NCBI GenBank assembly: GCA_040766505.1
Contig: JAXGQJ010000009.1
Coordinates: forward strand, 13,251 to 77,250
Direction of reading: 5' to 3'
Length of the DNA stretch: 64,000 bases
DNA from: Clostridiales bacterium
GTDB taxonomy: Bacteria > Bacillota > Dehalobacteriia > UBA7702
Shown here piece by piece: positions 2,131 through 64,000 of this stretch; position 1 is the first letter of the stretch, and each line of letters begins with the position of its first letter. The position numbers and the translations under genes are program-made. The notes below the pieces were generated by a model. That model was not told the origin of the DNA and did no database searches. It worked only from the letters and a program-made list of their open reading frames with translations.

Positions 2131-2145
2131 CGGTTTCCTCGCTTC

Positions 2146-3030: not shown

Positions 3031-3044
3031 TGTTTACGATACCT

Positions 3045-4548: not shown

Positions 4549-4566
4549 ACTTTCAGTGAATCAGGT

Positions 4567-6264: not shown

Positions 6265-6265
6265 T

Positions 6266-7411: not shown

Positions 7412-7419
7412 TTCCGCCC

Positions 7420-11586: not shown

Positions 11587-11705
11587 AACCGCGGCAGGAT
11601 GTTCCTGTAACAGAACCCCGGCCCCTGCGGCGCCGATTGGCGCTTGAAGGTTGCCGAGGAATTCTGTATTCGAAGGTTCCGGCGCACGGGGCAGCCGGCA
11701 AGATT

Positions 11706-12109: not shown

Positions 12110-12405
12110 GGGCTTTCGCCCCCTTTTTTTGACACTGGGCGCCGCGGATTCGGGGGGAACCAGCCCTTTTGCACCCGCTCTTCCTGTTCGTACAGCTCCC
12201 GGATGCTCCAAAGGAGGGAAAAACCCAATACGGCGCAAGGGCCGAGACGACGGCGGAGGAAAGAAAGAGCGAGGCGGCGGCAAAGAGCAAGCCGCCCGCA
12301 AGAAAGGCGGGCCAAATCCGTTTCCCAAAATAATATTCCGCCTTGATCACCACCGGATGCAGCAGGCCGATTATCAGGAAGGCGCCGACGCCGATGAGAA
12401 TACCG

Positions 12406-12845
12406 TCAAATGAACCATGCGTTTATACGCCTTTCATAGAGTTTGTTTTCTTCCCGGCTGTCTTGGCGGCAGGAAGGGCAGAGGCCGCGAAAAAACACCT
12501 CGTGGCCGGTGATGGAGAACCCCGTCGCCGCGGTGACCTTTTCATCCATATCGGTGAAGATGGCACCGTCGATGTCGAACAGTTTGCCGCAGCCATCGCA
12601 GCGCAGGTGGGCATGGTCGCCACAGGCCAGTTCGAAGCGCTCCGTCGCGCCGGACAAATCGATTGCTACGTGCCATCCGCCGACAAGAGATTCAAATTCC
12701 GATAAACGGTTCCGAGGCTGATATGGAGCGCCAATGCTTTTTAACTTTCCGCCAATACCTCCTGGGCCGTCGGATGGTTCAAAATCCGCAAAGCATCGAG
12801 AACCATTTGCCGCTGGGCGCTTTGCCGCCTGCCTGTTTCCGCCAT
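12406..12845 (-). pseudogene. Fur family metalloregulator (Zur/PerR-like), frameshifted in the N-terminal half
   Basis: MAETGRRQSAQRQMVLDALRILNHPTAQEV, then ISLGTVYRNLNLL in another frame, then ORF 12406..12657 with HLRCDGCG and LCPSC cysteine pairs. Confidence 0.7.
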
Positions 12846-12898
12846 TTTAACCTCCGCTATAAATCACTATTAAAAGGGGTTTCTATTTAGTCTCCTAT

Positions 12899-12927
12899 AC
12901 TATAAGGGTTTCCGTTCCTTTTGTCAA
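12899..12927 (-). promoter_or_regulatory. sigma-A type promoter of the fur-family gene
   Basis: On the minus strand: TTGACA (12927-12922), 17 nt, then TATAGT (12904-12899). Confidence 0.5.
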
Positions 12928-13077
12928 TATAAAGCAAATGGCGAGAGGGGGATGGCCCGGCATTCCCAAACGCCGCAACGGGCGGCTTTGCCGTCTTTGG
13001 GGCGGAAAATATGCTTCGCACCGCGCCAACAGCGCCGTATGGCGGCATTTTATTTTCCAAACAACAGGGCGCCGATT

Positions 13078-15022: not shown

Positions 15023-15096
15023 TGGAGCGGGTGATGGGAATCGAACCCACGTGTTCGGCTTGGGAAGCCGACGCTCTGCCATTGAGCTACACCCGC
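15023..15096 (-). tRNA. tRNA-Gly (anticodon CCC)
   Basis: GCGGGTG/CACCCGC acceptor stem, anticodon loop TTCCCAA, GGTTCGATTCC T-arm, encoded CCA. Confidence 0.9.
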
Positions 15097-15147
15097 ATAT
15101 GAAGCGGTACTCCGCAAAGGATTTTGCAGAGTACCTTACAGGCGGTT

Positions 15148-15224
15148 TGGTGACCCGTAGGGGATTCGAACCCCTGAATGCCAGCGTGAAAGGCTGGTGA
15201 GTTAAGCCGCTTCTCCAACGGGCC
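15148..15224 (-). tRNA. tRNA-Glu (anticodon UUC)
   Basis: GGCCCGT/ACGGGTC acceptor stem, anticodon loop CTTTCAC, GGTTCGAATCC T-arm, encoded CCA. Confidence 0.88.
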
Positions 15225-15228
15225 AAAA

Positions 15229-15304
15229 TGGTGAGCCATCGGCGACTCGAACGCCGGACACCCTGATTAAAAGTCAGGTGCTCTACCTACTGAGCTAATG
15301 GCTC
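15229..15304 (-). tRNA. tRNA-Lys (anticodon UUU)
   Basis: GAGCCAT/ATGGCTC acceptor stem, anticodon loop CTTTTAA, GTTCGAGTC T-arm, encoded CCA. It lies 4 nt upstream of tRNA-Glu. Confidence 0.9.
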
Positions 15305-24088: not shown

Positions 24089-25510
24089 TTATAGCGCAAA
24101 TTTTCCTTCCCATTTGGCAAGGATCGCTTCCCGCTCCTTATCCAGCGGCGTTTCTTCGCCGCCGATCACCTCTAAGGCCCGTTCCCGCATTTTCAGCGCG
24201 ACGTCGCTCTCATCGAGGTTCTTCATGCGGCGGGAGAAAAGCGAAGGATACCAGACGGAACGGAAGTTTTCCAAGGTATGGGGGTGGGTCATATATTCGC
24301 CGCCATGGCCCACTTCCCGGATGGTATCGAGCGCAAAATCCTCCTCTTCCACCCCGACCCCGGCGCTGTAATGGCGATAGGATTCGATCAGTTCATTGGC
24401 CAAAACGACGAGTTCCGGGCTGACGCTATTGCAATGGTCCATCACACCGACATCGTGCACGATATTGGCCTTGCTGAGCAAGGTGGAAAAAATTTGATAG
24501 GATATTTCAGAAACTGCCTGCACATCGACGGTTTTCGCGTCGGTGCAGCCGGCGGTGCCATAGAAGGGCAAGCCATAAGAGGCGACGAGATCGGCATGGG
24601 CGGCGATGCCGAGATGAAATTCCGGCGCGGCATAGCTGCCCACCGTCGTTTTCATATCGAAAACCGAGGGCATCGCGCCATAGATGAAGGGAGCCCCTTC
24701 CGACGCCAACTGGGTGAGAACAAGCCCCGCCAGGGCCTCCGCATTGCATTGGGCATAGGTGGCAGCCTTCGACATCGGCGCGGTGCCGCCCATCATGCAA
24801 TAGGGCATATAGACGAAGGGGATCCGATTTTCGGCGCTGATCAGCACCTTTTCCGTGCTTTCCAAGGGGTGGGTCAGGGGCGGAATCGGTTCGCAATAGT
24901 TAAAGATAAACGGTTTGTCCTGCAATTTGTCGAGCCCGCCGGCGAAATCGGCGGCGATGGCGATGCAATCCCGGAGGGATTCGATATCATTGCTGGAAAA
25001 ATTGATGGTCTTTTTCAGATGGCGCAGCGTTTCGATGAAGGTGCGCTGGGTCTGCACCCGGGGGTCCACATCCGCCGTCATGCCGACGGAGAGAACAAAG
25101 GAAATGTGCTCCATCGCATTGGCGATTTTGCACATCGACGCGATGTCGCTGTGATAGAAATTCCGCACGACGCCCTTCTCCGGCTCCACATATTGCAATT
25201 GGTCCGAGTGGGTGCCGAAATAGACCGGGTTCTTTTCATCGATGTGCATGATCACATCGCCGTCGCGGTTGTACAGATCGAGAACCTTGGGCGCTTTTTC
25301 GATGGCCCAGGCCGTCAACTTTTCCGGAATGAAAACGAGGCCCTCATTGTCCACGTCGGCGCCGGCTTTTTTAAAGAGGTTGAGGGCCCGTTCACCGGTG
25401 ACCCGCATACCGGTTTTCGTCATGATCTCGATGCTTTTGTCATGGATTTTATTGATCTGATCGCGGTTTAAAACATGAAATTCGATATTTCTTACGATCT
25501 CTTTGCTCAT
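24089..25510 (-). CDS. MttB-superfamily (non-pyrrolysine) methyltransferase, probable quaternary-amine:corrinoid methyltransferase
   Basis: 473 aa, uninterrupted (no in-frame amber codon). Length and overall sequence are characteristic of trimethylamine-methyltransferase-family proteins. Adjacent to a BCCT transporter. Confidence 0.75.
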   Translation of the reverse strand: MSKEIVRNIEFHVLNRDQINKIHDKSIEIMTKTGMRVTGERALNLFKKAGADVDNEGLVFIPEKLTAWAIEKAPKVLDLYNRDGDVIMHIDEKNPVYFGTHSDQLQYVEPEKGVVRNFYHSDIASMCKIANAMEHISFVLSVGMTADVDPRVQTQRTFIETLRHLKKTINFSSNDIESLRDCIAIAADFAGGLDKLQDKPFIFNYCEPIPPLTHPLESTEKVLISAENRIPFVYMPYCMMGGTAPMSKAATYAQCNAEALAGLVLTQLASEGAPFIYGAMPSVFDMKTTVGSYAAPEFHLGIAAHADLVASYGLPFYGTAGCTDAKTVDVQAVSEISYQIFSTLLSKANIVHDVGVMDHCNSVSPELVVLANELIESYRHYSAGVGVEEEDFALDTIREVGHGGEYMTHPHTLENFRSVWYPSLFSRRMKNLDESDVALKMRERALEVIGGEETPLDKEREAILAKWEGKFAL

Positions 25511-25579
25511 CTTTCCTCCTCGGCGGGAAGGGAGCGCCGCGGGCCTCCCTTGCTGCCAACCTGAAGCGGGAACACCGCT

Positions 25580-26791
25580 TTATTTTGAAATGCCTTCCCG
25601 CAGATATGCGTTCATCTCTTCCTTCGTCATGTCGCCAAGGCCGAGATAATCCAGGGTATAGCCTTCCGCATAGAAATCCCTTCCAAATCGCGGATACCAG
25701 ATTGATCATCGAATCGATCACCGGGGTTTTGACACCGAACTTTTTCCCCAATTCATGGTAGAGGTGGCAGCCGACGGGGATGTCCTCGGTGATATAGCGG
25801 TTTTCCATCGTGAAGGGGCCGGTGCCGTATTGGATATAGTCTTGCTGGTCAAAGGGATTTTGTACTCTTTGCCCATATATTCCTGGCCGAGAACATTCTC
25901 TCTAGAGAAAAGTCTTCCTTATCGTAGGGCTGGATGCCGACGCCGACGGCCTGCGCCAATGCACATTCTTCCTGATAGAAGGTGTACTGCACCTGAGAAA
26001 TGGAGGGGCAATAGGCATGGGAATAGATGCTGTAATCGTATTTGTTTTCGCCGTAGATCACGCCCCAGTTTTCCATCGTGCTGACCCCCAGGATCGTGCC
26101 GGGGCAGTGGAGAACCGGGTTCACATTGCTGAAGCCGATGTCGAGAACGGTATCGCCGGCAACGGCGCCGTCGCCCTTCGTCACCGCGTCCATGGAAGGC
26201 AGACAATTGGCGCTCTCAATGAAGTCCGCCGTATCGCAGGCCGGCATCGCCGCGCCTCGCAGGGTGATGGCCCGGTAGTAAACGCGGATCTTAGGCAGGA
26301 CGACGCCGCCTTTGACCTCTACGCGGCTGCCATAGGTGGAGGAAGACCAACCGCCGATGATAACCTTTTTGTCACAGCCGGCTTCTTTCATCATCTTTCT
26401 TAAAAGCAGGCTGCCGTAATTGTCGGGGAACAGGTGGACAACTTGGCCGTCTTCCAGCGCGGGGATCAGCTTTTCGAAGAAGGGTTTGTAGCCCAAAGTG
26501 GTGGTGCCGATCACGATTAGCCGGCGCCTTTAACGGCTTGGGCCACGTCGGTGGTGACCAATTCCATCTGGGCTTGGCCATGCCGTTCAAAACCGTAGAG
26601 ATTTAATTGGTCGCCAAAAATTTGATGCCGGTTTCCTCAACGCCAAACAGGGTTTTGTCCGAGAAAGGGGGCAGATCGCAGATGCGCACTTTGGCGCCGC
26701 CTAAGGCGCAGTCGGCGGCGATCGCTTTTGATACGGCGCCGGCCCCCAAAACCGCGATGGGTTTCTCCCGTAGATAATTAAACTTGCTCAT
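25580..26791 (-). pseudogene. NAD(P)-dependent opine (octopine/nopaline) dehydrogenase family protein, at least 3 frameshifts
   Basis: N-terminal Rossmann KPIAVLGAGAVSKA (ORF 26603..26791), a middle part (25849..26514), and the octopine-DH motif RYITEDIPVGCHLYHELGKKFGVKTPVIDSMINL (25449..25808). Confidence 0.7.
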
Positions 26792-43176: not shown

Positions 43177-44499
43177 TTAAAACTTCGTCAGATACTGGTC
43201 TACCTCCGCGGGGTGACCGCCGAGCGATAGCTGGCCCACTCTTTCCGCTTCGCCTCGGTAAAACAGTTAAAGACATGGGTACCCAAAGCCCGGAAATGAC
43301 GACATTGTTCTTCAATTCCTTGATGGTGTCCCGGAGGCTTTCCGGCAAAGCTCGATTCCTTGCCCAGCCTTTCGGCGGGCTGAGGCATAGAGATTGTAAT
43401 TGCAGGCCGGCGGCGGCGCAATCCGGTTTTTGATGCCGTCGAGGCCGGCGGTGAGCATCACCGCTTCCGCCAGATAGGGTTGCAGCAGGATCGGGCTGCG
43501 CATCTCCACCCGGGTGGAATTGCCCCTTCTGGTGGGAATCCGCACCAAGGGGCTGCGGTTCTTCCCGGACCAGGCGATATAAACCGGCGCTTCATAACCG
43601 GAGATCAGCCGCTTATAGGAATTGACGGTGGGGTTGGTGATCGCCGTGATCGCTTTCGCGTGTTTCAGAAGGCCGCCGATATAAAAATAGGCGATCTCCG
43701 ACAGGCCGTCTTTGCCTTCGGGGTCATAGAAAACGTTTTCCCCATTCCGGCTGAGGCTTTGGTTCATATGCATACCGGAACCGGCGATGCCGGCAATGGG
43801 CTTAGGCATAAAGGAGGCGTGGAGCCCGTGCTGCTGGGCCACCATCCGCACAATCAGTTTGAAGGTTTGAATTTTATCGGCGGCCTGGAGGGCCCCGTCA
43901 TACTTGAAGTCGATCTCGTGCTGGCCCGGCGCGCATTCGTGGTGGGAGGCCTCGATCTCATAGCCCATCTCTTCCAAAGCGATGATCATATCGCGGCGGG
44001 CATTTTCCCCAGATCCACCGGGGAAAGGTCAAAATACGCGGCATTGTCGTGGGTGAGCAGCGTGGGCGCGCCACCGGCGTCGGTATGAAACAAAAAGAAT
44101 TCCGCTTCGGGGCCGACATGCATTTCCAGCCCCATTTCCGCCGCCGCGGCGATGGCCCGCTTCAACACATAGCGGGGGTCCCCTTCAAAGGGCCGGTCAT
44201 TGTGATCGTATACATCGCAGATTAGCCGCGCGATGCCCTCTTTCTGGTGTTCCCAGGGGAAATCTGCCATGTATTGTAATCCGGCTTTAGATACATATCC
44301 GATCTTCGATGCGCACAAAACCTTCCACCGAGGAACCGTCGAACATCATCTCGCCGTTGAGAGCTTTTCCACCAGCTGACGGGTAATGCCACATTTTTAA
44401 AATCCCGGAAGGCAATACATCGCTAAACTGCAAGCGGATAAAACGCACCTGGTGTTCCCGGGCGCTTGCCAAAATGTCTTCCCTGCCATATTGGCCCAT
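43177..44499 (-). pseudogene. glnA: type I glutamine synthetase, at least 3 frameshifts
   Basis: Pieces lie in ORFs 44287..44499, 43986..44318 and 43312..43989 ([41 protein letters not shown]). The tail ...EVDQYLTKF-stop ends at 43177. Confidence 0.85.
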
Positions 44500-54461: not shown

Positions 54462-54884
54462 TTACTTTTTCAGCAGGGAAACGAGCTTCCAAAGGGCGGC
54501 GAAGAAGAGGATGGCCGGTAAAACCGGCGGGATCGGGGCAAAGAAGCCGAAAAAAGCGGGGAGAACGCCCATTTGCAGCAAGATGACCGCGCCAAACAGC
54601 TGCTGGGGCAGCAAGATGAGGCCGAGATACAGCAAAGAGAACAGCAGCGCCGCCACGAGGGAACCGCGCCGTTTTGGCTTTTCCCGGCAAAGGAGCAGGC
54701 TGAGATAGGCGACAACCAGAAAAGCCAAGGCCAAAACCGCGAGATAAGCGGCGGAAAAGGCCCCCCATTGTTTGCCCTGCCAGACCGGGCCGAGGCCAAT
54801 CTCATTGATGACCCGGTAGGCATAGAGGAAGAGCAGCGGAAAAAAGGCGAACAGCAGCGCCTTGAGATAGAGGGGAAGTTTCAA
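54462..54884 (-). CDS. hypothetical polytopic membrane protein
   Basis: Four or five hydrophobic helices. TTG start after an AAGGAG RBS. Last ORF of the Mo-enzyme-associated operon; no recognisable motif. Confidence 0.45.
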   Translation of the reverse strand: MKLPLYLKALLFAFFPLLFLYAYRVINEIGLGPVWQGKQWGAFSAAYLAVLALAFLVVAYLSLLLCREKPKRRGSLVAALLFSLLYLGLILLPQQLFGAVILLQMGVLPAFFGFFAPIPPVLPAILFFAALWKLVSLLKK

Positions 54885-54959
54885 AACGATCTCCTTTCCA
54901 CAGTCAGATGTCCATTGGCGGCATAGCGCCGCCATATCCGCTTTGGCCGCTTATTCGGA

Positions 54960-56094
54960 TCATCCAAATGATCCGGGATCGGCCGGGCCGTTTCCGGGGG
55001 ATTCCGACGCGGCGGCGGCGGTTTTTTCGGCATCGACGCCGCAGGCGGCGATTTGGGCCGCAACGGCCCTGGCCTTCGCTTCCCGTTCCCGCAGGGCCGG
55101 CAGATCGCCGAAGCGTTCATAAGCGGCGGCGAAACGGCCGGCGATGCCGACGAAACGATCCCCCATGACCATCTTATCGGCGAGAAAAAGTAGATCCTTT
55201 TCGGCCAGGATTTTTTCGGATCGATGCCGTCCCATATGGGCGCCGACAAGAACCGCCAATTCCGGCTGGCCGACGGCGAGGAGCCGCCCTTTGGCGACGG
55301 CGGCGTGGCCCCGTTCCCCTTGGCGAGGTCGTGAACGCGGCCGGCGGCATACACCGCCGCCCCGTCGAAGGAATGGCCCCGGCGGTTCAAAGCTCTCTGC
55401 CAGGCCGAGGCGGCGGCGGCCACCCGGTCGCAATGGGCTTGGAGTTGGGGGGGAAGGGGGGCCCGGGCCAACAGGTCCGCCACGAAAGCGAGGGGATCCC
55501 ACCGGGGGCAGGCGGCCGCCAGCTCCCGATATTCCTCTGGGGTGTCCATATCCCGCAGGATATGGGGATCCGGCACCGCCACCTCCTCGCCGCGATAGCG
55601 GCCCAGCAGGCCCCGGAATCCGTCGGGCCAGTCGCCGCGGAGAACCTCCCGGCCGATGGCGGCGGAAACCAGGATGGGATGGCCCCGTTCCCCGGCATAG
55701 ACGGGGTAGAAGAGCGGGCCGCCGCTTTCGGCATAGCGCCGCCACAAACGGCCCGGGGTATCGGCGGCGACCCCGGCAATGTCGGCGGGGTGCAAAAAAA
55801 ACATTTGGCGTTCCGGCGGCAGGCTAGCGATGCCGCGGCGGAGGGAAGAGAGCATGCCCTGCCGATAACCGGCATTTTCCACGAAGGTCACCTCTTCCCG
55901 GAAAGAGTTTGGCGGCAATCTCCTCCCGCCGGTGGCCCAAAACCACCCGGATATCGTCAATGCCGGCGCCGAGATAAGCGCCGATGACCCGATCCAGCGC
56001 ATACCGCCCCAATGGCAGCAAAGGCTTCACTCCCCCCATCCGAGAGGAAAGCGCCGGCGGCCAGGATCAGAGCGGCGGCCCGTTCAGCGCCCAT
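54960..56094 (-). pseudogene. MocA/MobA-like molybdenum-cofactor nucleotidyltransferase fused to an HD-domain, at least 2 frameshifts
   Basis: MGAERAAALILAAG..SSRMGGVKPLLPLG (NTP_transf_3 motif), ...FLHPADIAGV..., then an HD domain (AHCDRV...GRVHDLAK...) whose end is in ORF 54960..55745. Confidence 0.7.
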
Positions 56095-57132
56095 CGAAGC
56101 ATGCCCCAAAGCCCGAACGGCGATCAGTTCCCCGGCGATGCTGACGGCGATTTCCTCCGGCGTTTCGGCGCCGATTTTGAGTACCGCTGATCGGCGCATA
56201 GCAGCGGGCGATTTCCGCATCGCTGAACCTTCCTCCTGCAAGGCGGTAAAGACGGCCTTTGTCTTCTTGCGGCTGCCGATCATGCCGATATAGCGCGCCC
56301 CCGTTTTCAAACAGGCCGCCAGCACTTCCTTATCATGAAGGTGGCCCCGGGTCAGAATCACGCAATAGGTATCCGAGAGATCCCCCAAACCCTGAAATAG
56401 ATCGTCTTGAAAAGAGCCGAGCACCCGTAGCCATCGGCGCCGGGAAAGCGCCACCACGGCAACCTCCCGGTCGTCCATGACGATGACCTCGAAGCCGACG
56501 CTTTTTGCCACCGGGGCCAGTTTTTCACCGACATGGTCGGCGCCAAAGACCAATACCCGGCCGTCGGCCCCCAGCGGTTGCAGGTACATCCGGCCGTTTC
56601 CGATAGGGTGAATACGTCATAGCCCTTCATCTTATGAAGCAGCCCCGGTTCCCCCAGGAAAGCGGCCGACGCTGCCGTCGGCCAGGATCAGGCATTGGCG
56701 GCAGGCCATGCCCTGGCCGGATTTTGCCCCGGTTCCGGCAAGTAAAAGCCGTGCCAACCTTTTGCGCGGTGGATCACATCCTCCAATGCCTGATACACCT
56801 CCCGGCAGGCCATATCGCCGCCGTTCACATAGTCGATCCAGATTTCCACCTCGCCACCGCAGGCCATGCCTTCTTCCGCCGCGGAACCGGCTTTCATCTC
56901 AAATTCCAGCAAATGGGGACAGGCGGTTTCCAGCACTTCCGCCCCCGCCGCCCGGGCCGTCGCCTCCACCAGGCCGCCGCCGATGGTGCCGGCGATGGTG
57001 CCGTCGGGCCGGATCAGCATCTGGGCGCCGGTATGCCGCGGCGTATGCCCTTTTGCGCCACGATGGTGGCCAGGGCGAAGGAATCGCCCTCTGAAGCAGT
57101 TCCTGGGCGGCGGTGATGATTTCTCTCGTCAT
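56084..57132 (-). pseudogene. XdhC/CoxI family molybdoenzyme maturation protein, about 3 frameshifts
   Basis: MTREIITAAQELLQRGDSFALATIV, then MLIRPDGTIAGTIGGG (ORF 56688..57020), then the Rossmann part VLVFGADHVGEKLA...YIGMIGSRKK (ORF 55957..56589). Confidence 0.75.
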
Positions 57133-58436
57133 GGTTCTCTCTTCCTTTCCGTCTTGGGTGGTTTGCGCCGGTCGTCGATGGTACGTTTCCAGGTACCCCG
57201 GTTTTCAAAGCCGGTCAGCGGCGTGAAGCGGAAAGCTCCAGCCGCCAGCCGCTCCCCGGCAGCAGAGTGCCGCGACGGCGGCCCGCACCGCCGCCCCGGA
57301 CGGGGCACGAATACCGGCGACGTCCAGCAACAGCGCCTTTTCCTCGATGGCGGCGCGAAAATCCAGTATTTCCGGCAGGGGGAACAAAGCCCTTCATCCA
57401 ACTGCGGCTGGGAGAGGGCAAAGCCTTCTTCAAGGTCACGATGCCCCGCAGCCGGCCGGAAACCGGGCCAGGCGGCGCAAAAGCTGCCGCAGGAAGGCGA
57501 CGTCAGAAAACGGCTGTCCCCGGTGCGATAGCGGATAAAGGGCGCCTTGCCGGGTTAAGGTGCTGAACACCACCTCTCCCTCTTCTCCGGCGGGCAAGGC
57601 CCGGCCGGTGGCGGGATCGACAATTTCCAGCAGCAGATCCATTTCCCGCAGATGATAACCGTCCCGGGCGGCGCATTCCACGCCGCCGCCGAGGCCCGTT
57701 TCCGTCGTGCCATAATGGGCAAAAACCCGGCATTGCCACAGCGATTCCAGTACGCGGCAGAGGGATTTCGGCACATAATCGGCGCTTAAAAGCACCGTAT
57801 CGATATGGGCCCGCTCCCGATTGCCCCTTTCCCGGCCATAGCGGGCCAGGGCCAAAACCTGGTTGGGAATCCCCACGATGCAGCGGGCCCGGGAGGACAG
57901 CAGCGCCCGATAGGCGGCGTCCAGGTCGGCGACGGGGCCAAAGGCCACGCTGCCAATTTCTTGGCGGGCCAGGCCCTTCGCCAACAGATCGCCGATGCTG
58001 CCGGGCCGCGCGCCGGGCATCAGGATCAAGACCGGGCCCGGCGGATCCACCAGCGTGCGCATTCCGTGGGCAAAAAAATCTATCGTCAATTCCTGGTCCG
58101 CCCCGGTGAAAAAGACCCGTTTGGGGCCTCCTTCGGTGCCGGAGCTTTCCAGCGTAACGATGCGCTGGATCTCCTTGGCCAACGCAGCCAGGACAAAGGA
58201 TCGGCCCGCAGCATGTCGGCATCGGTAAAGGGCAGCGCCGCCAAATCCCCGGGGGTTCGCAGCTCCTCCAGGGCGATGGCGGCGAGATGGCGGCGATAAA
58301 AGGCGCTATGGGATCGCGCATAGGCGACGGTGCGGCGCAAACGCCGCAACTGCTCCGCTTCCAGAGCGGCGGCGTCGGCGGCTTTGCTTCCCGCGACGAT
58401 CCAGGCCTCCAGTGGGGTGACGGGCAGCGTCATCAT
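57129..58436 (-). pseudogene. PaaK/F390-synthetase-like adenylate-forming ligase, several frameshifts
   Basis: MMTLPVTPLEAW...AFYRRHL (ORF 58086..58436), the AMP motif LESSGTEGGPKRVFF, and YGTTETG (ORF 57436..58182). The C-terminal domain is scattered over frames down to 57129. Confidence 0.7.
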
Positions 58437-58873
58437 TTTTTTGCGCTCTCTTCTCTCATTTCTCTCATTTCTCTCATTTCATCCAGATCAAAACCGTTTT
58501 CAAACAGGATCTCTTTCGCTTGCAGGTAAACGTTTTCGATCAGGCCGGGGCAGACTTGGACGCGGTTTTGCATGTCCCCTTTTAAGATTTCCAGGCAGTC
58601 GACATTGCCATAGGCCTCTTGAAACCATTCTGACAGTTCCGGCACCATTTTATCCCTGGCCAATTCTTTATTAAAAAGCCCCAGCATGCAAGCGCCGCCG
58701 GAAAGCGCGCCGCAAAGCTTGCCGATCCGCATACCGCCGCAAAGGGTGGCAACGGCGTCCACCATCTGGGCGTTCTCTTCGCCCCTGGCTTCGAGGCCCA
58801 TCGCCACCAAAACCTGGGTACAGCACAAACCGCTTTCCACCAATGCGCGAACCCTTTTTATATCGTCGCTCAT
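58433..58873 (-). CDS. C_GCAxxG_C_C family (putative redox-active) protein
   Basis: SGLCCTQVLV, LCGGM...KLCGALSGGACMLG, NVDCLEI..VCPGLI. ATGA-type overlaps at both ends. Tail EMREMREMREE. Confidence 0.75.
   Translation of the reverse strand: MSDDIKRVRALVESGLCCTQVLVAMGLEARGEENAQMVDAVATLCGGMRIGKLCGALSGGACMLGLFNKELARDKMVPELSEWFQEAYGNVDCLEILKGDMQNRVQVCPGLIENVYLQAKEILFENGFDLDEMREMREMREESAKK
58451..58477. repeat. perfect 9-bp x3 tandem repeat (encodes MRE-MRE-MRE)
   Basis: TTCTCTCAT repeated at 58451-58459, 58460-58468 and 58469-58477. Confidence 0.9.
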
Positions 58874-59550
58874 CTTTTTTCCTCCTTTTCGGCGGCGATC
58901 AGGCAATATCCTGCTTTTCCGCCGCCTTTCTCACATTTTTCATCCCATCTTTTAGCGTTTTTTCCCCCCAGAAAAGCAGCGGGGGGAATGCCGTTCCAAA
59001 CCATTTCCGCCGCCAGAGCGGCCAAAACGCCGCTTTGGTCGGAAAAATGCAGGAGCCGGAAGGGGGCAAGCAAGGCCTCCAGCTCCTGCCGGTTTCGCAG
59101 CATCTGCCCTTGGCAGCCGGTGACGGATCCCGCCCGGCTGTAAAGGTCGGCGATGACGGCGACGCCGCCGGGCTTTAAAACCCGGCGCATTTCCGCCACC
59201 ACCGCTTTGGCGTCGGCGACGAGGGACAGAACGCATTCCGCCAAAACCCCGTCAAAAACACCGTCGTCAAAGGGCAGGCGTTCCCCGACGGCGGCAATCA
59301 GTTCCAAACCGGGGTGGAGCTCCCCGGCCCTGGCCCGCAGCAGCGGCGAGGGCTCGACGCCGACGGCCTCATAACCATAGCTTTCCCGCAACAGCGCCAC
59401 GGTGGCTCCATCCCCGGCGCCTATGTCGAGAATACGGGCGGCGGCGGGAAAGGCGGCCAAGGCCAGGGCCTTCTCGGTCAGCGCCCTGCCGCCGGGGTGG
59501 AGCTTCCCTCCCAGCGCCGCTTTCGTGGCGGCGTCCTCATACCGTTTCAT
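58870..59550 (-). CDS. class I SAM-dependent methyltransferase with a Cys-containing C-terminal extension
   Basis: ILDIGAGDGATV (motif I), LKPGGVAVIADL, and a C-terminal part with GCQGQ and KCEKGGGKAGYCLI. Its stop overlaps the next start. Confidence 0.75.
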   Translation of the reverse strand: MKRYEDAATKAALGGKLHPGGRALTEKALALAAFPAAARILDIGAGDGATVALLRESYGYEAVGVEPSPLLRARAGELHPGLELIAAVGERLPFDDGVFDGVLAECVLSLVADAKAVVAEMRRVLKPGGVAVIADLYSRAGSVTGCQGQMLRNRQELEALLAPFRLLHFSDQSGVLAALAAEMVWNGIPPAAFLGGKNAKRWDEKCEKGGGKAGYCLIAAEKEEKR

Positions 59551-59554
59551 AGGC

Positions 59555-60898
59555 TTATTTCCTTCGGTACAGGCCTTGCCCTGCCTCATTCGTCACTTGA
59601 TAAGCGCAGAAGGGAACCAGCCTTTCATCGGCGGTCAGCACCTGCACCCGGCACTTTTGCAGCCGATCCACATCAAGGTTCCAAACGTCTTGAAAGGCCA
59701 TGCCCGTCAAAGTGAAACCGTCCTCCCTGAGATGCCGCAGCACCCGGTCAAAACCGTCCTCTTCTCCGCAGCAACCGCCGCCGTTTTCCGGCAGCGTCCA
59801 TTTGTTCAAAACGAAATCCCGGTCTTTGGCGACGATCTCTTCCGGCGTGGGGCAGCAGCAGCCGCAGCTTTCCGCCGGTTTCATCGCCAAGATGCCGTCG
59901 CCCTCCCGCAGGAAAGCGCCATAAAAGCAGCAGAGGGGATGCCCCGTCTGCAAGGGGGCGAGATCCTGCCGCCTGATCTTGCCGCCGGTCTGTTTTTCCA
60001 GCTCGATCATCACCGTATCGAGGGTGACCCGGCCCTCCTCCGGCGGCGGCCCGGGATAGCGGCCAAAATAACTGACCGGCTGGAAGTGGATGCCCCGGAC
60101 ATGGGGCATATGATCGAGCATGAATTGGAACATCGCGCCGATTTCATGGACATTGACGCCGGGGGTCACCGTCGGCACCAAGGTGACCGGCAACCCGGCG
60201 GCGGCGCAATGCTCCACCGCCTGCTTCTTATTGGCGAAAAGGGGTTCCCCCCTCAATTGCCGATAGATCGCGTCGTCAATGCCGTCAAATTGCATAAAGA
60301 CGACGGACAAGCCCGCCTCCCGCAGCGTTTTCGCATAGGAGGGATCCTCCCCCAGCCTGCGGCCATTGCTGTTCAATTGGATATAGGTGAAGCCTTTTTC
60401 CCGGCCCATGGCGATGATGGCGGGGAGATCCTCCCGCACCGTCGGCTCGCCGCCGGAAATCTGGATATTGAAGGGCCGCTCTTCTCCCCATTCCCGCAGC
60501 CGGTCATACCATTGGGCGATCCGCTCCAAAGAGGGGTCGGCGGCGGGGCTTTCATTGGCCGAGGCGAAGCAGAGCGGGCACTTTTGATTGCAGCGCATCG
60601 TTACGTCCAACAGCACGCAACAGGCGGTCTGTTTATGGTTGGGGCAAAGGCCGCAATCGAAGGGGCAGCCCTTGTCCGTTTCGGTTTGGGGCAATCGCCC
60701 GGGAATATTGGTGGTTTCCACCATCCATTGGGAAAAGGAAGCGGCGTCCTCCCAGACCAAGGTGGTGTAGGCGCCGTGTTCCGGGCATTCCTTCACCAGA
60801 TAGACCCGATTGCCGTCCTGCCGGTAGGTGGCGGGAACCCGTTTCAAGCAGCGGGGGCAAAGGCTTTCGGTCGCCGAAATTGTCTTAGCATCGCTCAT
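59555..60898 (-). CDS. radical SAM enzyme with an N-terminal zinc-ribbon and a large C-terminal domain
   Basis: CPRC...CPEHG ribbon and CNQKCPLC (CxxxCxxC). GGEPT. Cys-rich CGCCC and GGCCG patches. Tail MAFQDVWNLDVDRLQKCRV. 447 aa from M56 of the track ORF. Confidence 0.8.
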   Translation of the reverse strand: MSDAKTISATESLCPRCLKRVPATYRQDGNRVYLVKECPEHGAYTTLVWEDAASFSQWMVETTNIPGRLPQTETDKGCPFDCGLCPNHKQTACCVLLDVTMRCNQKCPLCFASANESPAADPSLERIAQWYDRLREWGEERPFNIQISGGEPTVREDLPAIIAMGREKGFTYIQLNSNGRRLGEDPSYAKTLREAGLSVVFMQFDGIDDAIYRQLRGEPLFANKKQAVEHCAAAGLPVTLVPTVTPGVNVHEIGAMFQFMLDHMPHVRGIHFQPVSYFGRYPGPPPEEGRVTLDTVMIELEKQTGGKIRRQDLAPLQTGHPLCCFYGAFLREGDGILAMKPAESCGCCCPTPEEIVAKDRDFVLNKWTLPENGGGCCGEEDGFDRVLRHLREDGFTLTGMAFQDVWNLDVDRLQKCRVQVLTADERLVPFCAYQVTNEAGQGLYRRK

Positions 60899-60984
60899 TC
60901 GCTCATACCCACACTTTCTGTTCCGATTTAGAGCGGCGCGGCGCAAAACCGGGAAAACCCGTCTTTGGGCCGGTCGCCGGGGCT

Positions 60985-61176
60985 TTATTTGTCTTCCAAG
61001 GTGGCTTCGACCTGGGCGACCTTTCCTTTCACCAAATCTTCGGAGATATAGACCTGGCCGCATTGGGGGCAGACCGGCAGATCCGCCGGAAATTCATAGT
61101 CGAGATAGCGCAAGAAAATCTTGCGCTCCTCCAAGGCCACATTGCAAAGATCGCAAATCGCTTGTTCCGTCGTCAT
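60985..61176 (-). CDS. 63-aa zinc-ribbon (CxxC...CxxC) protein
   Basis: MTTEQAICDLCNVALEERKIFLRYLDYEFPADLPVCPQCGQVYISEDL.... GGAGGAG RBS. ATGA overlap with the stop of the 767-aa gene. Confidence 0.6.
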   Translation of the reverse strand: MTTEQAICDLCNVALEERKIFLRYLDYEFPADLPVCPQCGQVYISEDLVKGKVAQVEATLEDK

Positions 61177-63476
61177 CGCTTCTCCTCCTGAATCTGGAGG
61201 CGGTGGCAATAGACATTGCGGACGCGGTAGCCATCCCCCTCCGGCACATACTCCACCCAATAGGTGATGATGCCGATTTGCAAATGGGCCAGAAAACCGT
61301 CTCCCCGCCGCAGCCGGCGGCGGCTTTTTTCCGCCGCGGCGATCACCTTTTGCACATCTTCGGCAAGGATCAGGAGATCGTCCATCTTTTTCTGCACCTC
61401 TTCGGACAGGAGCAGGCAAATCTTTTCATATTCCCGTTTTTCCATCTTGGTTTCTACCCCCCATTCCTCCCGCAACAACCGCTCCTTCAGCCGCACCCGG
61501 TTTTGCCGCCGGTCGCCCAAAGACGGCGCTTTTCGCGGCTTACCGTCGCCAAAGGCAAGATCCAACAGATGGCAACTGTTCTTCCCCTGGCTGGCAAAAA
61601 CATCGCGGCAATTGGCGCAATAGCAGATATAGTCGTGGGGGCTGGCGGCGGCGCGCTTGGCCCGGATTTCCTTCGTCAGATCCGGGTTCGCGGCATAGGT
61701 CAGCCCACCATAGGTGCAGCATTGGCTTCTTTCGCCGTGATAAGGCAGTTCCTCGACACGGTAACCGCTCTTTTCCAACAGCTTTCGGACAGCATGGCGG
61801 GTCTTGGCCTCCCGCCGGGCGGAACAGGGGTCAAAAACCGTAACGGTTCGCCCCTCTCCCGGCTTCAGGCCGATCTCAGCCCCTTCGGCGGCAAGATGGT
61901 CGATCAGCGAAGAGAATCGCGCCGCCGGGAGATACTGTTTTAACTGCTTCATACAAGAAGGGCAAGCGAGAATCAGCTCCGGCCTTCCCTTTGCCTCCCA
62001 ATCGGCCTCGATTGCCGCCAGCACTTCTTCCATCCGGTCGAGACGCCCGGCCCAGGCCGCCGGCGCGCCGCAGCAGGAAAGCGACAGGGCCACCCGGTCT
62101 TCCCCCAAGCGGCGCTTCAAAAAGCGATAGCTCTCCACCACCACATCGGGATCGGAGGCCCCCAGCTGGCAGCCGGGGAAAAAGAGATATGGCGCCGCCG
62201 CCGCTCCCGCCGGCAAGCGGGAAAGAAAAGCGTCCTCCCCCTGGGTGAAGGCCATATCCCGCAGCCAGAAATCGTGAAAGGTTTCGGGCATTTTGCCCTT
62301 TTCCACCATCAAAACCCTGGCCCCCTGGCAAACGCCGCCCATATCGACGCCTACATGGCAAACCTCCTTGCAGAGGCCACAGAGATTGCAGGAGTTGATA
62401 AAGCGGTTGGAGGCGCTGGGGGCGATGCCCTTGATGGTGTTCAGGCTTTGCACCACATTGCCGATGTATTGCTTCGGCACATCGCGGAAATGCGCCAAAA
62501 ATTCGCAGCCTTTCAAACAATTGTCGCATTTGCATTGCAGGCAGCGGCCGGCTTCGGCCAAAAGCTCCCCCTTATCATAGCCTTCCCCGTCCTGGGGGAC
62601 GATGGCGGCGGTTGGCTCCACCCCCCGGGTTTCGGTATAGAGCTTCGTTTCCACCCGGCCTTCATATTCCCTGTCCAGCACCAGCGAGGACTTTTTTAAA
62701 AACCGCTCGATGGATTTCGCGGCGCGAAAACCGTCGGCGATGAGCTGGCTGGAGGAAACCTCCTCTCCGGTACCGCGAACCAGCGTGCCGCCTACAAAGA
62801 CGCCGGGCCGGGCGCTTTCAAGGGAAATGGGGTGAAAGGCGGGACGCCCCCCTTCCCCTAAGGGCAGCGGAAATCCGGCGGCGCCGGTGGCGATGAAAAA
62901 CACGTCCCCCTCCACCTCGCCAATGTCCTTCACCTCACGGTTGAAGTGGAAACGGACGTCCTCATCGGCGGGAAGGCCGGAAAATGTTTTTTCCAAAAGC
63001 TCCGGCGGCAGCAGCGCCGGATCCGCCTGCCAAAGGGAACCGCCCAGCCGGTCGCTCTTTTCATACAGCTCCACAGGATAGCCCTTGCGGGATAGGTTGA
63101 TTGCGCAGCTCAATCCCGTTAAGCCGCCGCCGATCACGGCGACCAGCCCTTCCTTTTCCGGTATCGAAAACCGGGGCAGCGGGCGTTTTTTGGCATGGTC
63201 GCAAAGCCCCCGTTCGATGCCGCGCAGATCGATGGCTTCGCCCAAATCGCGGCGAATGCAATCTTGGCGGCAGGGGGCATTGCAGGTGCGGCTAACGATT
63301 TCGGGGAACAATACCTGGCTGCGATAGGCCTTATAGTCACCGTTGAAATCTTCCCGCATAATTTTTCCGATCATGCCGCGAACGTCGACATGGAGGGGGC
63401 AGCCATTGGTGCAAAACACCACTTCCTCAGCGACGCATTTCGGGGCTTCTTTGATAATATCGTTTTCGTTCAGCAT
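61173..63476 (-). CDS. 767-aa multidomain flavo-iron-sulfur oxidoreductase (GltD-like FAD/NAD(P) module + 2x[4Fe-4S] + two CCG/HdrD-GlpC-like domains + unknown C-terminal domain)
   Basis: VAVIGGGLTGLSCA dinucleotide fold. CLQCKCDNCLKGC and CNLCGLCKEVC ferredoxin motifs. FFPGCQLG and FDPCSAR...CCTYGG CCG-type motifs. Intact. Confidence 0.75.
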   Translation of the reverse strand: MLNENDIIKEAPKCVAEEVVFCTNGCPLHVDVRGMIGKIMREDFNGDYKAYRSQVLFPEIVSRTCNAPCRQDCIRRDLGEAIDLRGIERGLCDHAKKRPLPRFSIPEKEGLVAVIGGGLTGLSCAINLSRKGYPVELYEKSDRLGGSLWQADPALLPPELLEKTFSGLPADEDVRFHFNREVKDIGEVEGDVFFIATGAAGFPLPLGEGGRPAFHPISLESARPGVFVGGTLVRGTGEEVSSSQLIADGFRAAKSIERFLKKSSLVLDREYEGRVETKLYTETRGVEPTAAIVPQDGEGYDKGELLAEAGRCLQCKCDNCLKGCEFLAHFRDVPKQYIGNVVQSLNTIKGIAPSASNRFINSCNLCGLCKEVCHVGVDMGGVCQGARVLMVEKGKMPETFHDFWLRDMAFTQGEDAFLSRLPAGAAAAPYLFFPGCQLGASDPDVVVESYRFLKRRLGEDRVALSLSCCGAPAAWAGRLDRMEEVLAAIEADWEAKGRPELILACPSCMKQLKQYLPAARFSSLIDHLAAEGAEIGLKPGEGRTVTVFDPCSARREAKTRHAVRKLLEKSGYRVEELPYHGERSQCCTYGGLTYAANPDLTKEIRAKRAAASPHDYICYCANCRDVFASQGKNSCHLLDLAFGDGKPRKAPSLGDRRQNRVRLKERLLREEWGVETKMEKREYEKICLLLSEEVQKKMDDLLILAEDVQKVIAAAEKSRRRLRRGDGFLAHLQIGIITYWVEYVPEGDGYRVRNVYCHRLQIQEEKR

Positions 63477-63521
63477 AGATTTTCCCCATCTTGGCAGCGG
63501 ATCGCCTGCGCCTTGTTAGAA

Positions 63522-63550
63522 GTTCACCTGCCGCAAAGCGGCAGGTGAAC
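63522..63550 (-). other. strong intercistronic hairpin between the Mo-enzyme gene and the accessory operon
   Basis: GTTCACCTGCCGC-ttt-GCGGCAGGTGAAC (13-bp perfect stem, 3-nt loop), followed only by TTCT on the minus strand. Confidence 0.6.
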
Positions 63551-63591
63551 GCAGGCTATCAGCCAGTTTGCTATCGGTAGTCTATCAAGGG

Positions 63592-64000
63592 TTATTTCAG
63601 AACCACCAGGGGATTCCGCTTGATGTCCTCGATCTTTTCGTGGAGGTCGCAGCCGAGATAATACTTCTTAGGCTTGACCTGTTCGCCGCGGGCCAATTGG
63701 TCCATGGCGGCTTTCAGCCGTTCCGGGGTGGCGGGCAATTCATAGGTGCGAACGCCGGTGGCATTGTAGACGGCGTTCAGAACCGCCGCGTGGGGCGCCG
63801 AGAGATACAGCTCGGAGCAGCCGACGGAACCGTGGGGGCCGGTGGGCCGGTGGGATTCCACATAGTCGATGTCGAGCTTATCGGGAATGTCGTCAATATA
63901 GGGGAAGCCGCAGGCGACGAGGGAATTGTGCTTCTGCACATCGTCATAATCCTCACTCAGGGCGAGGCCGATGCCTTGGGCGAGGCCGCCATAGGCCTGG
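63592..64000 (-). CDS. xanthine-dehydrogenase/aldehyde-oxidoreductase family molybdopterin-binding protein, C-terminal end only (5-prime part beyond the window)
   Basis: ...GLAQGIGLALSEDYDDVQKHNSLVACGFPYIDDIPDKLDIDYVESHRPTGPHGSVGCSELYLSAPHAAVLNAVYNATG, typical of the Ald_Xan_dh_C2 tail. Confidence 0.75.
   Translation of the reverse strand, partial: QAYGGLAQGIGLALSEDYDDVQKHNSLVACGFPYIDDIPDKLDIDYVESHRPTGPHGSVGCSELYLSAPHAAVLNAVYNATGVRTYELPATPERLKAAMDQLARGEQVKPKKYYLGCDLHEKIEDIKRNPLVVLK

Follow-up and report, generated by a model that had tools for sequence, protein, structure and literature searches.

A Clostridia copy of the gene cluster that accompanies MOP-type molybdenum aldehyde oxidoreductases, and its probable roles in electron transfer and cofactor maturation

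Introduction

The locus described here raises the question of why a gene for a molybdenum aldehyde oxidoreductase (AOR) should be followed by genes for a radical SAM enzyme, a methyltransferase, a cysteine-rich protein and an adenylate-forming ligase, together with XdhC and MocA, whose roles in the molybdenum cofactor (Moco) are established for both families. It lies at the end of the window, by which we mean the whole 64,000-nucleotide stretch of DNA analysed. By the 3' end of a MOP-type AOR gene stand eight closely packed, co-directional genes on the minus strand, all at the places given in the initial annotation, and the coordinates bear out the overlaps and small gaps described there. All features below are on this strand.

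The Mo enzyme and the hairpin behind its gene

The last 135 codons of the MOP-type molybdopterin enzyme occupy 63592-64000, and the remainder lies outside the window. This C-terminus contains Pfam MoCoBD_2 and shares, by tblastn, 81% identity with positions 811-945 of the orthologue in a relative, L001. That orthologue, 945 aa long, reaches 1361 bits on NF045668, where the cut-off is 1100, and its alignment with D. gigas AOR (1SIJ/1VLB, 1056 bits) spans the full length. By the coordinates, 115 nt separate the Mo gene from the next gene, and the hairpin noted earlier in this spacer is indeed present (63522-63550), with a perfect 13-bp stem, a 3-nt loop and no U-tract; the spacer fold there has an energy of -45 kcal/mol and a z of -3.6. 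Of 50 corresponding spacers in other genomes, 49 have a hairpin at the same position with a stem of 8 bp or more. It is likely to be a partial terminator or an mRNA-stabilising element.

The flavo-FeS and zinc-ribbon proteins

The 767-aa flavo-FeS/CCG protein (61173-63476) matches NF045663 ('diclust_near_Sec'), a family that the initial annotation had left unnamed, with 828 bits against a cut-off of 530, and frameshift-aware alignment revealed no frameshift in its gene. Its Pfam domains are an NfnB/GltD-like N-terminus (Fer4_20 and an FAD/NAD(P) fold), a dicluster domain and two HdrB-like CCG domains, and residues 8-205 match NfnA, NfnI and GltD in the PDB. The protein is the probable electron-transfer partner of the AOR. 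The 63-aa zinc-ribbon protein of the DUF7479/DVU_1557 family (60985-61176; NF045645, 79.5 bits, cut-off 60; PF24292) is encoded by a gene that is translationally coupled to the flavo-FeS gene through an ATGA overlap, and the two proteins are fused in L036, L066 and L087. It is probably a small subunit of the flavo-FeS protein, as judged from these arrangements.

The radical SAM enzyme TrsS

After a spacer of 86 nt follows the gene of a 447-aa radical SAM enzyme (59555-60898), likewise unnamed before, which the profile search assigns to TrsS (NF045646, 571 bits, cut-off 490). In the two closest relatives an NTPase_1 gene lies here, behind the zinc-ribbon gene and ahead of that for TrsS; the window is without it. 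TrsS has the Pfam domains Zn_ribbon_HMPTM and Radical_SAM, carries CxxxCxxC plus further invariant Cys residues, and matches GDGT-MAS (PDB 7TOL) with an E of 2e-87. Judged by its sequence, TrsS belongs among the radical SAM enzymes with several clusters and is a relative of the archaeal synthase of tetraether lipids. Residues 9-325 and 395-436 align with GDGT-MAS/Tes (7TOL/7TOM), with a shared N-terminal zinc-ribbon/rubredoxin-like motif, CPxDCGxC and the radical SAM CxxxCxxC, whereas the middle region (325-395) differs from GDGT-MAS and the score on the Tes model, 351 bits, falls short of the cut-off of 450. In TrsS there is no variation at C93 and C323 and hardly any at C94, C347 and C348, while non-Cys residues stand opposite C93/C94 and C323 in 7TOL, and the genomic context consists of bacterial Moco genes and not of lipid genes. 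An earlier annotation of the MJ0619 protein group (GDGT-MAS/Tes) was HMPTM, a pterin dimethyltransferase.

The NCBIfam names of TrsS and of the C-GCAxxG-C-C family include '(seleno)protein', and that of the flavo-FeS family 'near_Sec'. The TrsS of the window is the Cys form without an in-frame TGA and is no selenoprotein, and among the 80 loci examined none had a Sec codon aligned to Cys. TrsS is fused to MocA(HD) in L029 and L036, which belong to two phyla, and to an N-terminal methyltransferase in P0042 and P0113.

The distal genes and their frame changes

Only 4 nt separate TrsS from the DVU_1556-family class I SAM methyltransferase (58870-59550; NF045667, 188.5 bits, cut-off 155). Gaps of 0 nt lie on both sides of the DVU_1555-family C-GCAxxG-C-C cysteine-rich protein (58433-58873; NF045669, 111.5 bits, cut-off 103; PF09719), whose likeness to the FeS region of split-Soret cytochrome c is faint. 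Next comes the DVU_1553-family PaaK-like adenylate-forming ligase (57129-58436), which overlaps by ATGA with the gene of the XdhC-family maturation factor (about 56101-57132); the true stop of the latter is obscured by frame changes. The last member (54960-56120, DVU_1551 family) is a MocA-like nucleotidyltransferase fused to an HD phosphohydrolase. In L001 the ligase orthologue matches PaaK (4R1L) with an E of 2e-36 and the MocA-HD orthologue has the NTP_transf_3 and HD domains, and in L087 XdhC and MocA-HD are fused.

The family names DVU_1557, 1556, 1555, 1553 and 1551, given in the initial annotation, were correct in the profile search, which also returned 'XdhC family aldehyde oxidoreductase maturation factor'. 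Profile searches after frameshift correction had been advised as well; their outcome was clear for the ligase (NF045666, 400 bits, cut-off 300), while XdhC (NF045664, 313 bits, cut-off 350) and MocA-HD (NF045665, 283 bits, cut-off 315) stayed slightly below their cut-offs with the full profiles covered (positions 2-345 of 346 and 2-355 of 359). The membrane ORF that had been attached to the operon (54462-54935, hydrophobic, 157 aa) is lineage-specific and is better placed outside the conserved module, since 81 related loci contain no homologue of it and Pfam gave no match. In L001 a GNAT gene lies directly behind MocA-HD, with no such ORF between them.

Frameshift-aware alignment with intact orthologues gave 23 frame changes in the ligase (8), XdhC (9) and MocA-HD (6) genes, and 23 of the 24 in the 12.5 kb syntenic with L001 fall inside 3.4 kb (binomial P about 1e-12). 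Clustering of this kind is compatible with real decay as well as with patchy error.

It is possible, if unlikely, that ligase, XdhC and MocA-HD are genuine decaying pseudogenes and that the locus is no longer functional in the host genome. Such decay would fit the concentration of the changes, which neither GC content nor homopolymer density explains, the loss of the NTPase_1 gene from the window, the larger fall in identity to L001 of ligase and XdhC than of the intact genes, and the related MAG L004, whose 10 frame changes are all at the distal end, in the methyltransferase, XdhC and MocA-HD. However, every event is of 1-2 nt beside short homopolymers, conserved peptide can be read out of frame, and large deletions are absent from the three genes; a bacterial pseudogene with 23 indels in 3.4 kb would not usually keep its conserved motifs intact. 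Similar patches of breakage affect unrelated genes elsewhere in the window: glnA is in three pieces and a P-type ATPase in at least 3 frames, and yqfD, a Fur-like gene and an octopine-DH-like gene are also interrupted. This makes assembly error the likelier source. The 23 frame changes are most probably consensus errors.

Conservation across genomes

Relatives of TrsS occur in at least 580 GTDB species, and conservation of the neighbourhood extends over no fewer than 7 phyla. In the 46 TrsS loci with adequate flanks the partners were the ligase (46), methyltransferase (44), DUF7479 (43), flavo-FeS protein (42), C-GCAxxG-C-C protein (42), Mo enzyme (40), XdhC (37) and MocA-HD (36), most often in the order Mo enzyme, flavo-FeS, DUF7479, methyltransferase, C-GCAxxG-C-C, TrsS, ligase, XdhC, MocA-HD. 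The locus tags in the family names (DVU_1557, 1556, 1555, 1553, 1551) run in this order, and DVU_1559 is Aor. The expected adjacency to a MOP-type Mo enzyme thus holds from the side of TrsS (40/46), and in the reverse direction in 3/3 Desulfovibrionales/Desulfobacterales isolates, D. gigas, D. africanus and Desulfobacter curvatus, where flavo-FeS, DUF7479, methyltransferase, C-GCAxxG-C-C, TrsS and ligase genes follow the AOR gene. Conservation is lowest for XdhC and MocA; both are absent from the vicinity of the D. africanus locus, and MocA from that of D. gigas. The link of the four enigmatic genes to the AOR and the flavo-FeS protein is therefore no looser than their link to the established Moco factors.

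In six loci the operons are divergent, with Mo enzyme, flavo-FeS and DUF7479 on one side and TrsS, methyltransferase, C-GCAxxG-C-C, ligase, XdhC and MocA on the other, and in L040 and L061 this second unit stands alone. The fusions and the divergent two-operon layouts set an enzyme and electron-transfer unit apart from a maturation unit. Recurrent Mo-related neighbours are MoeA, a MoCF_biosynth protein and a ModABC-like transporter, and in 8 loci an EF2568/SclA-type cysteine desulfurase lies immediately upstream of TrsS.

Comparison with known systems

DVU_1551-DVU_1559 of D. vulgaris Hildenborough (NF045663-NF045669 and NF045645/NF045646) comprises the same nine families as the window, where five are above cut-off; in the window three genes are frameshifted and TrsS comes before the methyltransferase and the C-GCAxxG-C-C gene, as in the closest relatives L001 and L004. 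Behind the mop gene of D. gigas (Megalodesulfovibrio; 1VLB/1SIJ) there are likewise genes for flavo-FeS, DUF7479, methyltransferase, C_GCAxxG_C_C, TrsS-type, AMP-binding ligase and XdhC proteins, but a nitroreductase gene is inserted after mop, a MoCF_biosynth gene lies upstream, and a His_Phos_1 phosphatase and a HEAT protein take the place of MocA-HD.

The XdhC/PaoD and MocA systems (R. capsulatus XDH, E. coli PaoABC) also have an XdhC-family chaperone and a MocA-like cytidylyltransferase by the structural gene, and share a NifS-like cysteine desulfurase with the 8 loci mentioned above. The module proteins nevertheless score below the cut-offs of canonical XdhC (123 against 161.6) and MocA (107 against 186), MocA is fused to HD, and the four extra enzymes are without counterpart there. 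The sulfido ligand that XdhC systems usually deliver is reportedly not needed by the D. gigas target enzyme.

A further comparison is with the maturation loci of selenium-dependent molybdenum hydroxylases (the E. faecalis EF2568 region), reportedly described by Haft and Self in 2008. Such loci resemble the present one in a xanthine oxidase-family Mo hydroxylase with XdhC-like factors, and the desulfurase of the 8 related loci belongs to the EF2568 family (TIGR01977, 325 bits), while the window has no desulfurase.

Discussion

Our data are, on balance, in favour of a Clostridia copy of the conserved locus of MOP-type (Desulfovibrio gigas-like) AORs, composed of an electron-transfer unit and a maturation unit, with probable consensus errors in its distal genes. 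In the first unit, the stable hairpin would probably keep AOR mRNA in excess, and the flavo-FeS protein with its zinc-ribbon subunit may serve as the flavin/NAD(P)(H)-linked module missing from MOP-type enzymes. In the second, in keeping with what is established for the two families, MocA-HD would produce the cytosine dinucleotide form of Moco, which XdhC would hold and insert, and TrsS, the methyltransferase, the Cys-rich protein and the ligase may add a SAM- and ATP-dependent step before or during insertion, directed at the cofactor, its labile ligand sphere or its redox state. The initial annotation had thought of a modified cofactor or ligand, or of a small-molecule partner. In high-resolution structures native D. 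gigas AOR, which is active in this form, contains ordinary MCD, in which the equatorial ligand is oxo and neither sulfido nor any further ligand is seen. This weakens the idea of a stable modified cofactor, since the module adjoins the gene, and the AOR thus shows no stable trace of what the four enigmatic enzymes make.

The plain cofactor is in line with another reading, that the four enzymes serve the flavo-FeS/HdrB-like partner and not Moco, their product being some special cofactor or cluster, or a co-substrate that the partner reduces, for example a low-molecular-weight thiol. The CCG domains are an HdrB-type module, the four genes occur with flavo-FeS and DUF7479 in 42-43 of 46 loci as against 36-37 for XdhC and MocA, and D. 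africanus holds them without either factor. This nevertheless seems unlikely to us, because MocA-TrsS fusions are known in two phyla, divergent layouts co-transcribe the four genes with XdhC/MocA instead of the flavo-FeS gene, and L040 and L061 retain both sets with no flavo-FeS gene nearby. A catabolic pathway, in which the AOR would oxidise an (aryl)acetaldehyde, the ligase form the CoA ester, and TrsS and the methyltransferase tailor the substrate, is very improbable: phenylacetate-CoA ligases are the nearest solved relatives of the ligase and an iron alcohol dehydrogenase gene recurs nearby (5 loci, also L087), but the ligase has its own equivalog family, scores 93-115 bits on PaaK equivalogs with cut-offs of 646-700, always lies beside TrsS and stays with XdhC/MocA rather than the AOR in split layouts, and thiolase, hydratase and other CoA-pathway genes do not recur.

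The suggestion that the module is conserved yet functionally uncharacterised agrees with the existence of curated NCBI models, with the assignment of no module protein to an unrelated characterised pathway, and with the literature searched, in which no experimental work on any of its families was found. Since the NCBI models and a 2025 paper name the cluster (Haft & Tolstoy, mSystems 10:e0141724, from which NCBIfam lists TrsS), the locus is a new member of an already known, uncharacterised kind. The cluster, which anaerobic bacteria carry beside the AOR gene, is catalogued, widespread and biochemically unexplained, and the window adds one copy of it; its function is probably to supply the AOR with an electron partner and to help mature the AOR cofactor.

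Gene layout and family assignment

The minus-strand genes that the initial annotation had placed behind the gene of a probable MOP-type molybdenum aldehyde oxidoreductase (AOR), between 54960 and 64000, were all recovered in the ORF map. The AOR gene (3' end at 63592-64000) is followed by a 115-nt spacer, and the next two genes, for a 767-aa flavoFeS protein (61173-63476) and a 63-aa zinc-ribbon protein, DUF7479 (60985-61176), overlap by ATGA. An 86-nt spacer precedes the gene of the radical SAM enzyme TrsS (59555-60898), the next three gaps, leading to a methyltransferase, a C-GCAxxG-C-C (CGCA) protein and a PaaK-like ligase, are 4, 0 and 0 nt, and another ATGA overlap marks the entry into the XdhC gene, with the gene of MocA-HD (NTP transferase and HD domain) behind it. 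The trailing 157-aa membrane ORF that the initial annotation had listed along with the operon has neither a Pfam family nor a homologue in 81 loci, and is rejected as a member of the operon or module. In the loci of the two closest relatives a THEP1-like NTPase_1 gene (PF03266, 176 aa) lies between the DUF7479 and TrsS genes (L001:9490-10020 and L004:9492-9995), where the window has just the 86-nt spacer (60899-60984); NTPase_1 is present in only 4 of 46 loci.

The NCBIfam names given in the initial annotation were confirmed by a profile search of each protein, after the frameshift correction proposed there where a gene was interrupted, and six proteins score above their family cut-off. For flavoFeS the score is 828 bits on NF045663 (pyridine nucleotide-disulfide oxidoreductase/dicluster-binding, diclust_near_Sec; cut-off 530, profile 5-759 of 759), for TrsS 571.2 bits on NF045646 (radical SAM (seleno)protein TrsS; cut-off 490, profile 2-441 of 441), and for the methyltransferase 188.5 bits on NF045667 (DVU_1556 family; cut-off 155). 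The DUF7479 protein matches NF045645 (DVU_1557 family redox protein; 79.5 bits, cut-off 60) and PF24292 (87.9 bits), and the CGCA protein NF045669 (DVU_1555 family C-GCAxxG-C-C; 111.5 bits, cut-off 103). Fragments of the three remaining proteins already hit their family models (NF045666, NF045664 and NF045665), and the scores given here rest on frameshift-aware reconstruction of conceptual proteins. The corrected ligase reaches 400.1 bits on NF045666 (DVU_1553 family AMP-dependent CoA ligase; cut-off 300, profile 2-330 of 331), the biggest fragment before correction giving 298 bits. XdhC, a conceptual sequence with 9 X residues and residual errors, scores 312.8 bits on NF045664 (XdhC family aldehyde oxidoreductase maturation factor; cut-off 350, profile 2-345 of 346), by far its best family, and MocA-HD, which carries the same kind of errors, scores 283.3 bits on NF045665 (DVU_1551 family NTP transferase; cut-off 315, profile 2-355 of 359); both are thus full-profile matches below the cut-off.

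The window holds no more of the AOR gene than its final 135 codons, whose product shares 81% identity with the C-terminus of the 945-aa enzyme of L001, the closest complete relative, and the remainder of the gene is inferred from that enzyme. The L001 enzyme scores 1360.9 bits on NF045668 (molybdopterin-dependent aldehyde oxidoreductase, MOP type; cut-off 1100) and 1056 bits against the AOR of Desulfovibrio gigas, and is a single chain with Fer2, Fer2_2, Ald_Xan_dh_C and MoCoBD_1/2 domains and without a FAD domain.

Comparison with Pfam and PDB gave for flavoFeS an N-terminus resembling NfnB/GltD together with a dicluster domain and two CCG domains; the methyltransferase appeared in the PDB comparison as a generic class I enzyme, and no solved relative was found there for the CGCA protein. 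In TrsS, Pfam shows a zinc ribbon of the HMPTM type together with a radical SAM core. Among solved structures the archaeal tetraether lipid synthase Tes / GDGT-MAS (7TOL, E 2e-87) is nearest to it, yet TrsS is a homologue and not a member of that family (NF045702; 351.1 bits in two stretches, cut-off 450), and the earlier statement that it is unlike MoaA holds, since the scores of 66-75 bits on TIGR02668/TIGR02666 (cut-offs 284-325) cover the radical SAM core only. Similarly, the corrected ligase is PaaK-like by PDB comparison but falls outside the PaaK family (93-115 bits on TIGR02155 / NF041878 against cut-offs of 646-700), and the corrected MocA-HD and XdhC share homologous domains with canonical MocA (TIGR03310; 107.2 bits against 186.45) and canonical XdhC (TIGR02964; 123 bits against 161.6) while belonging to separate subfamilies.

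The TrsS family name allows both selenocysteine and cysteine forms. The ORF at 59555-60898 is uninterrupted, with no in-frame TGA, and TrsS of the window is therefore the Cys form. TGA/Cys pairs were sought in every core protein of 80 loci and none was found, so that the Sec position was not located; short CGCA matches proved to be ordinary Cys forms, and the N-terminally short TrsS-type protein P0034 has a mis-called start rather than a Sec codon. A Sec-type TrsS is represented by WP_327020591.1, and the Cys residues specific to TrsS are C93/C94, C323 and C347/C348.

Some further features were observed along the window. The 3' end of the CGCA gene (approximately 58450-58480) carries an in-frame 9-nt tandem repeat encoding MREMREMRE, which is missing from the L001 orthologue (137 aa vs 146 aa). 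The region 2000-8000 has a GC content of 0.43-0.46 vs approximately 0.55-0.60 elsewhere and may be horizontally acquired. Three tRNA genes (Gly-CCC, Glu-TTC and Lys-TTT) are clustered on the minus strand at 15023-15304; at the Rfam gathering thresholds these were the only hits in the window, with nothing in L001, and thus no riboswitch or other known RNA.

Frameshifts in the 3' part of the cluster

When the DNA was aligned with the intact L001 protein orthologues by a frameshift-aware method, the ligase gene showed 8 frame changes, that of XdhC 9, that of MocA-HD 6 and that of YqfD 1, and no change was found in flavoFeS, TrsS, the methyltransferase, CGCA, GNAT, YabP, the G5 protein or the RrnaAD methyltransferase. 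The frame changes are significantly clustered (P about 1e-12). Neither GC content nor homopolymer density is supported as the cause of this clustering, which speaks for true decay of these genes, as do the 10 frame changes in the related MAG L004, located in the methyltransferase, XdhC and MocA-HD genes. Against decay, unrelated genes are broken too, as found by Pfam on split ORFs and six-frame reading: a heavy-metal P-type ATPase is spread over at least three frames, the gene of a Fur-like regulator is split, and glnA and an octopine-DH-like gene are cut into three ORFs and into two or three pieces, respectively (these and yqfD at 9270-13000, 25449-26791, 43312-44499 and 52356). Moreover, every frame change is of 1-2 nt beside short runs, and conserved peptides are still readable out of frame. 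Patchy consensus error in a noisy MAG is thus the probable explanation and true decay an unlikely one; the assembly seems error-prone in patches. GC3-phase Viterbi decoding was also tried for window-wide mapping of frameshifts, and was discarded as too coarse after it missed the known cluster.

Conservation and gene neighbourhood

A scan of the TrsS alignment against one genome per GTDB species gave relatives in at least 580 species, in a range that includes Bacillota, Desulfobacterota, Chloroflexota, Spirochaetota, Nitrospirota, Acidobacteriota, Synergistota and one alphaproteobacterium. Partners were counted in the 46 loci whose sequence extends at least 9 kb upstream of TrsS and 5.5 kb downstream of it. 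The ligase is near TrsS in all 46, followed by the methyltransferase (44), DUF7479 (43), flavoFeS and CGCA (42 each) and the Mo enzyme, which lies within approximately 10 kb in 40 loci; XdhC (37/46) and MocA-HD (36/46) are the least constant members, and all nine families, TrsS included, occur together in 26 loci.

The neighbourhood was also read from the side of the AOR. The D. gigas sequence was rebuilt from the PDB alignment and an identical genomic protein was found, with the gene order mop, flavoFeS, DUF7479, methyltransferase, C_GCAxxG_C_C, TrsS-type radical SAM, ligase and XdhC. The AOR loci of D. africanus and Desulfobacter curvatus have the same core genes, so that the module is present at 3 of 3 AOR-anchored loci and the conserved neighbourhood beside MOP-type AOR, a check put forward in the initial annotation, is found from both directions. 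The locus-tag numbers in the family names (1557, 1556, 1555, 1553 and 1551) match the commonest observed gene order, and D. vulgaris Aor is DVU_1559.

Other frequent neighbours are MoeA, a MoCF_biosynth protein, a ModABC-like transporter, a sigma-54 regulator and an iron alcohol dehydrogenase. A cysteine desulfurase of the EF2568/SclA type (TIGR01977, 325 bits) lies directly upstream of TrsS in eight loci (L070:8528-9962, L033:8546-9963, L051, L054, L043, L052, L075 and L081), joined in 7 of these by a conserved 100-aa ORF without Pfam or NCBIfam family. In D. gigas a nitroreductase-family gene stands between mop and the flavoFeS gene (L085:12800-13414), and nitroreductase genes flank the module in L084 and L087 too. 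Two tandem AOR genes occur in L015, L020 and L080 beside a single TrsS/methyltransferase/ligase set, with two flavoFeS genes in L015 and L020, which fits one maturation unit serving several enzymes.

Two units, gene fusions and the hairpin

Six loci have the genes in two divergent operons, Mo enzyme-flavoFeS-DUF7479 and TrsS-methyltransferase-CGCA-ligase-XdhC-MocA, and two loci have the second unit alone. Fusions were found of MocA(HD) with TrsS (L029 and L036), methyltransferase with TrsS (P0042 and P0113), flavoFeS with DUF7479 (L036, L066 and L087) and XdhC with MocA-HD (L087). The idea that DUF7479 is a RiPP-like precursor on which the radical SAM enzyme acts was dropped, since DUF7479 is fused to flavoFeS in three genomes. 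The nucleotidyltransferase accompanies, or is fused to, a phosphohydrolase of one of two folds, HD in the window and His_Phos_1 in L084 (fusion, L084:5803-7002), D. gigas (stand-alone gene, L085:20673-21260) and Desulfobacter curvatus (an XdhC-MocA-HD triple fusion plus a His_Phos_1 gene, L087:20334-22718). This pairing with two folds suggests that the pathway includes a phosphatase step.

The spacer behind the AOR gene contains, as had been noticed earlier, a hairpin with a perfect 13-bp stem (63522-63550) and without a U-tract. A strong hairpin is present 3' of the AOR gene in 49 of 50 Mo-flavoFeS spacers, with a fold z-score of -2 or lower in 46, indicating either partial termination or transcript stabilisation by a conserved element. 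A scan for promoter and terminator consensus sequences gave counts no higher than the shuffled expectation, and the lack of a U-tract made the scan overlook the spacer hairpin.

Discussion

The cluster is already recognised and curated, and the window adds no new component to it. A 2026 review lists TrsS as a selenoprotein family, with Haft & Tolstoy 2025 as the source. A full-text literature search, which left out Haft & Tolstoy 2025 and Haft & Gwadz 2023, returned no functional study of the DVU_1551-1558 families or of TrsS. Together with the curated NCBIfam models this agrees with the initial description of a module that is conserved and functionally uncharacterised. The observation is confirmed, and its interpretation as a Clostridia version of this conserved module beside the AOR is supported. 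The functional proposal, that the module may make or install a modified cofactor, ligand or small-molecule partner for the AOR, is weakened where it means a stable modified cofactor.

Two of the proteins have established roles: MocA makes the cytosine dinucleotide form of Moco (MCD), and XdhC binds Moco, protects it and inserts it. The other four members of the second unit (TrsS, methyltransferase, CGCA protein and ligase) probably act with these two on the cofactor or its ligand sphere, and the flavoFeS/zinc-ribbon pair would be the cognate electron-transfer module of the AOR, an enzyme without a FAD domain. In the D. gigas literature flavodoxin is offered as the putative partner, and no other.

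A real argument against this reading comes from the native D. gigas AOR, which shows plain MCD with an equatorial oxo ligand and is reported to be active without sulfido, its activation and inactivation having been put down to dithiolene redox chemistry. Its gene adjoins the full module though the enzyme shows plain MCD, from which it follows that any product of the four enzymes is labile, or acts elsewhere, or sets the state of the cofactor and not its composition. In addition, XdhC and MocA are the members most often missing from the locus. As the main rivals of this reading, the four enzymes could instead mature the flavoFeS partner or make its co-substrate, or the module could serve a catabolic route from aldehyde to acyl-CoA. 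It is tempting to speculate that the four enzymes install or regenerate a labile, unrecognised feature of the AOR pyranopterin that is lost or scrambled in aerobic purification, with flavoFeS as the true redox partner; candidates are a chalcogen equatorial ligand (S/Se, possibly methylated) or a defined dithiolene/pterin redox state. We regard this specific proposal as rather improbable. If the labile feature does exist, it would account both for the batch-to-batch variation in the activity of the D. gigas AOR and for the lack of a sulfido ligand, in which this enzyme is apparently alone among xanthine-oxidase-family hydroxylases, and the NfnB/HdrB-like flavoFeS protein, not flavodoxin, would be the redox partner of the enzyme.

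The value of the window is mainly confirmatory, in that it extends the cluster to a lineage of sporulating Clostridia, and the analysis shows recurring fusions, a two-unit layout and a conserved hairpin behind the AOR gene. The MOP-type AOR is a textbook molybdenum enzyme with two old puzzles, namely its reported activity in the absence of the sulfido ligand, the defining feature of its family, and a flavin partner that is putative. Several hundred anaerobe species, the source of the crystallised enzyme included, keep the same gene set beside the AOR. With its large flavoFeS protein and four enzymes to which no known Moco pathway assigns a role, this set provides genetically tractable candidates for both puzzles.
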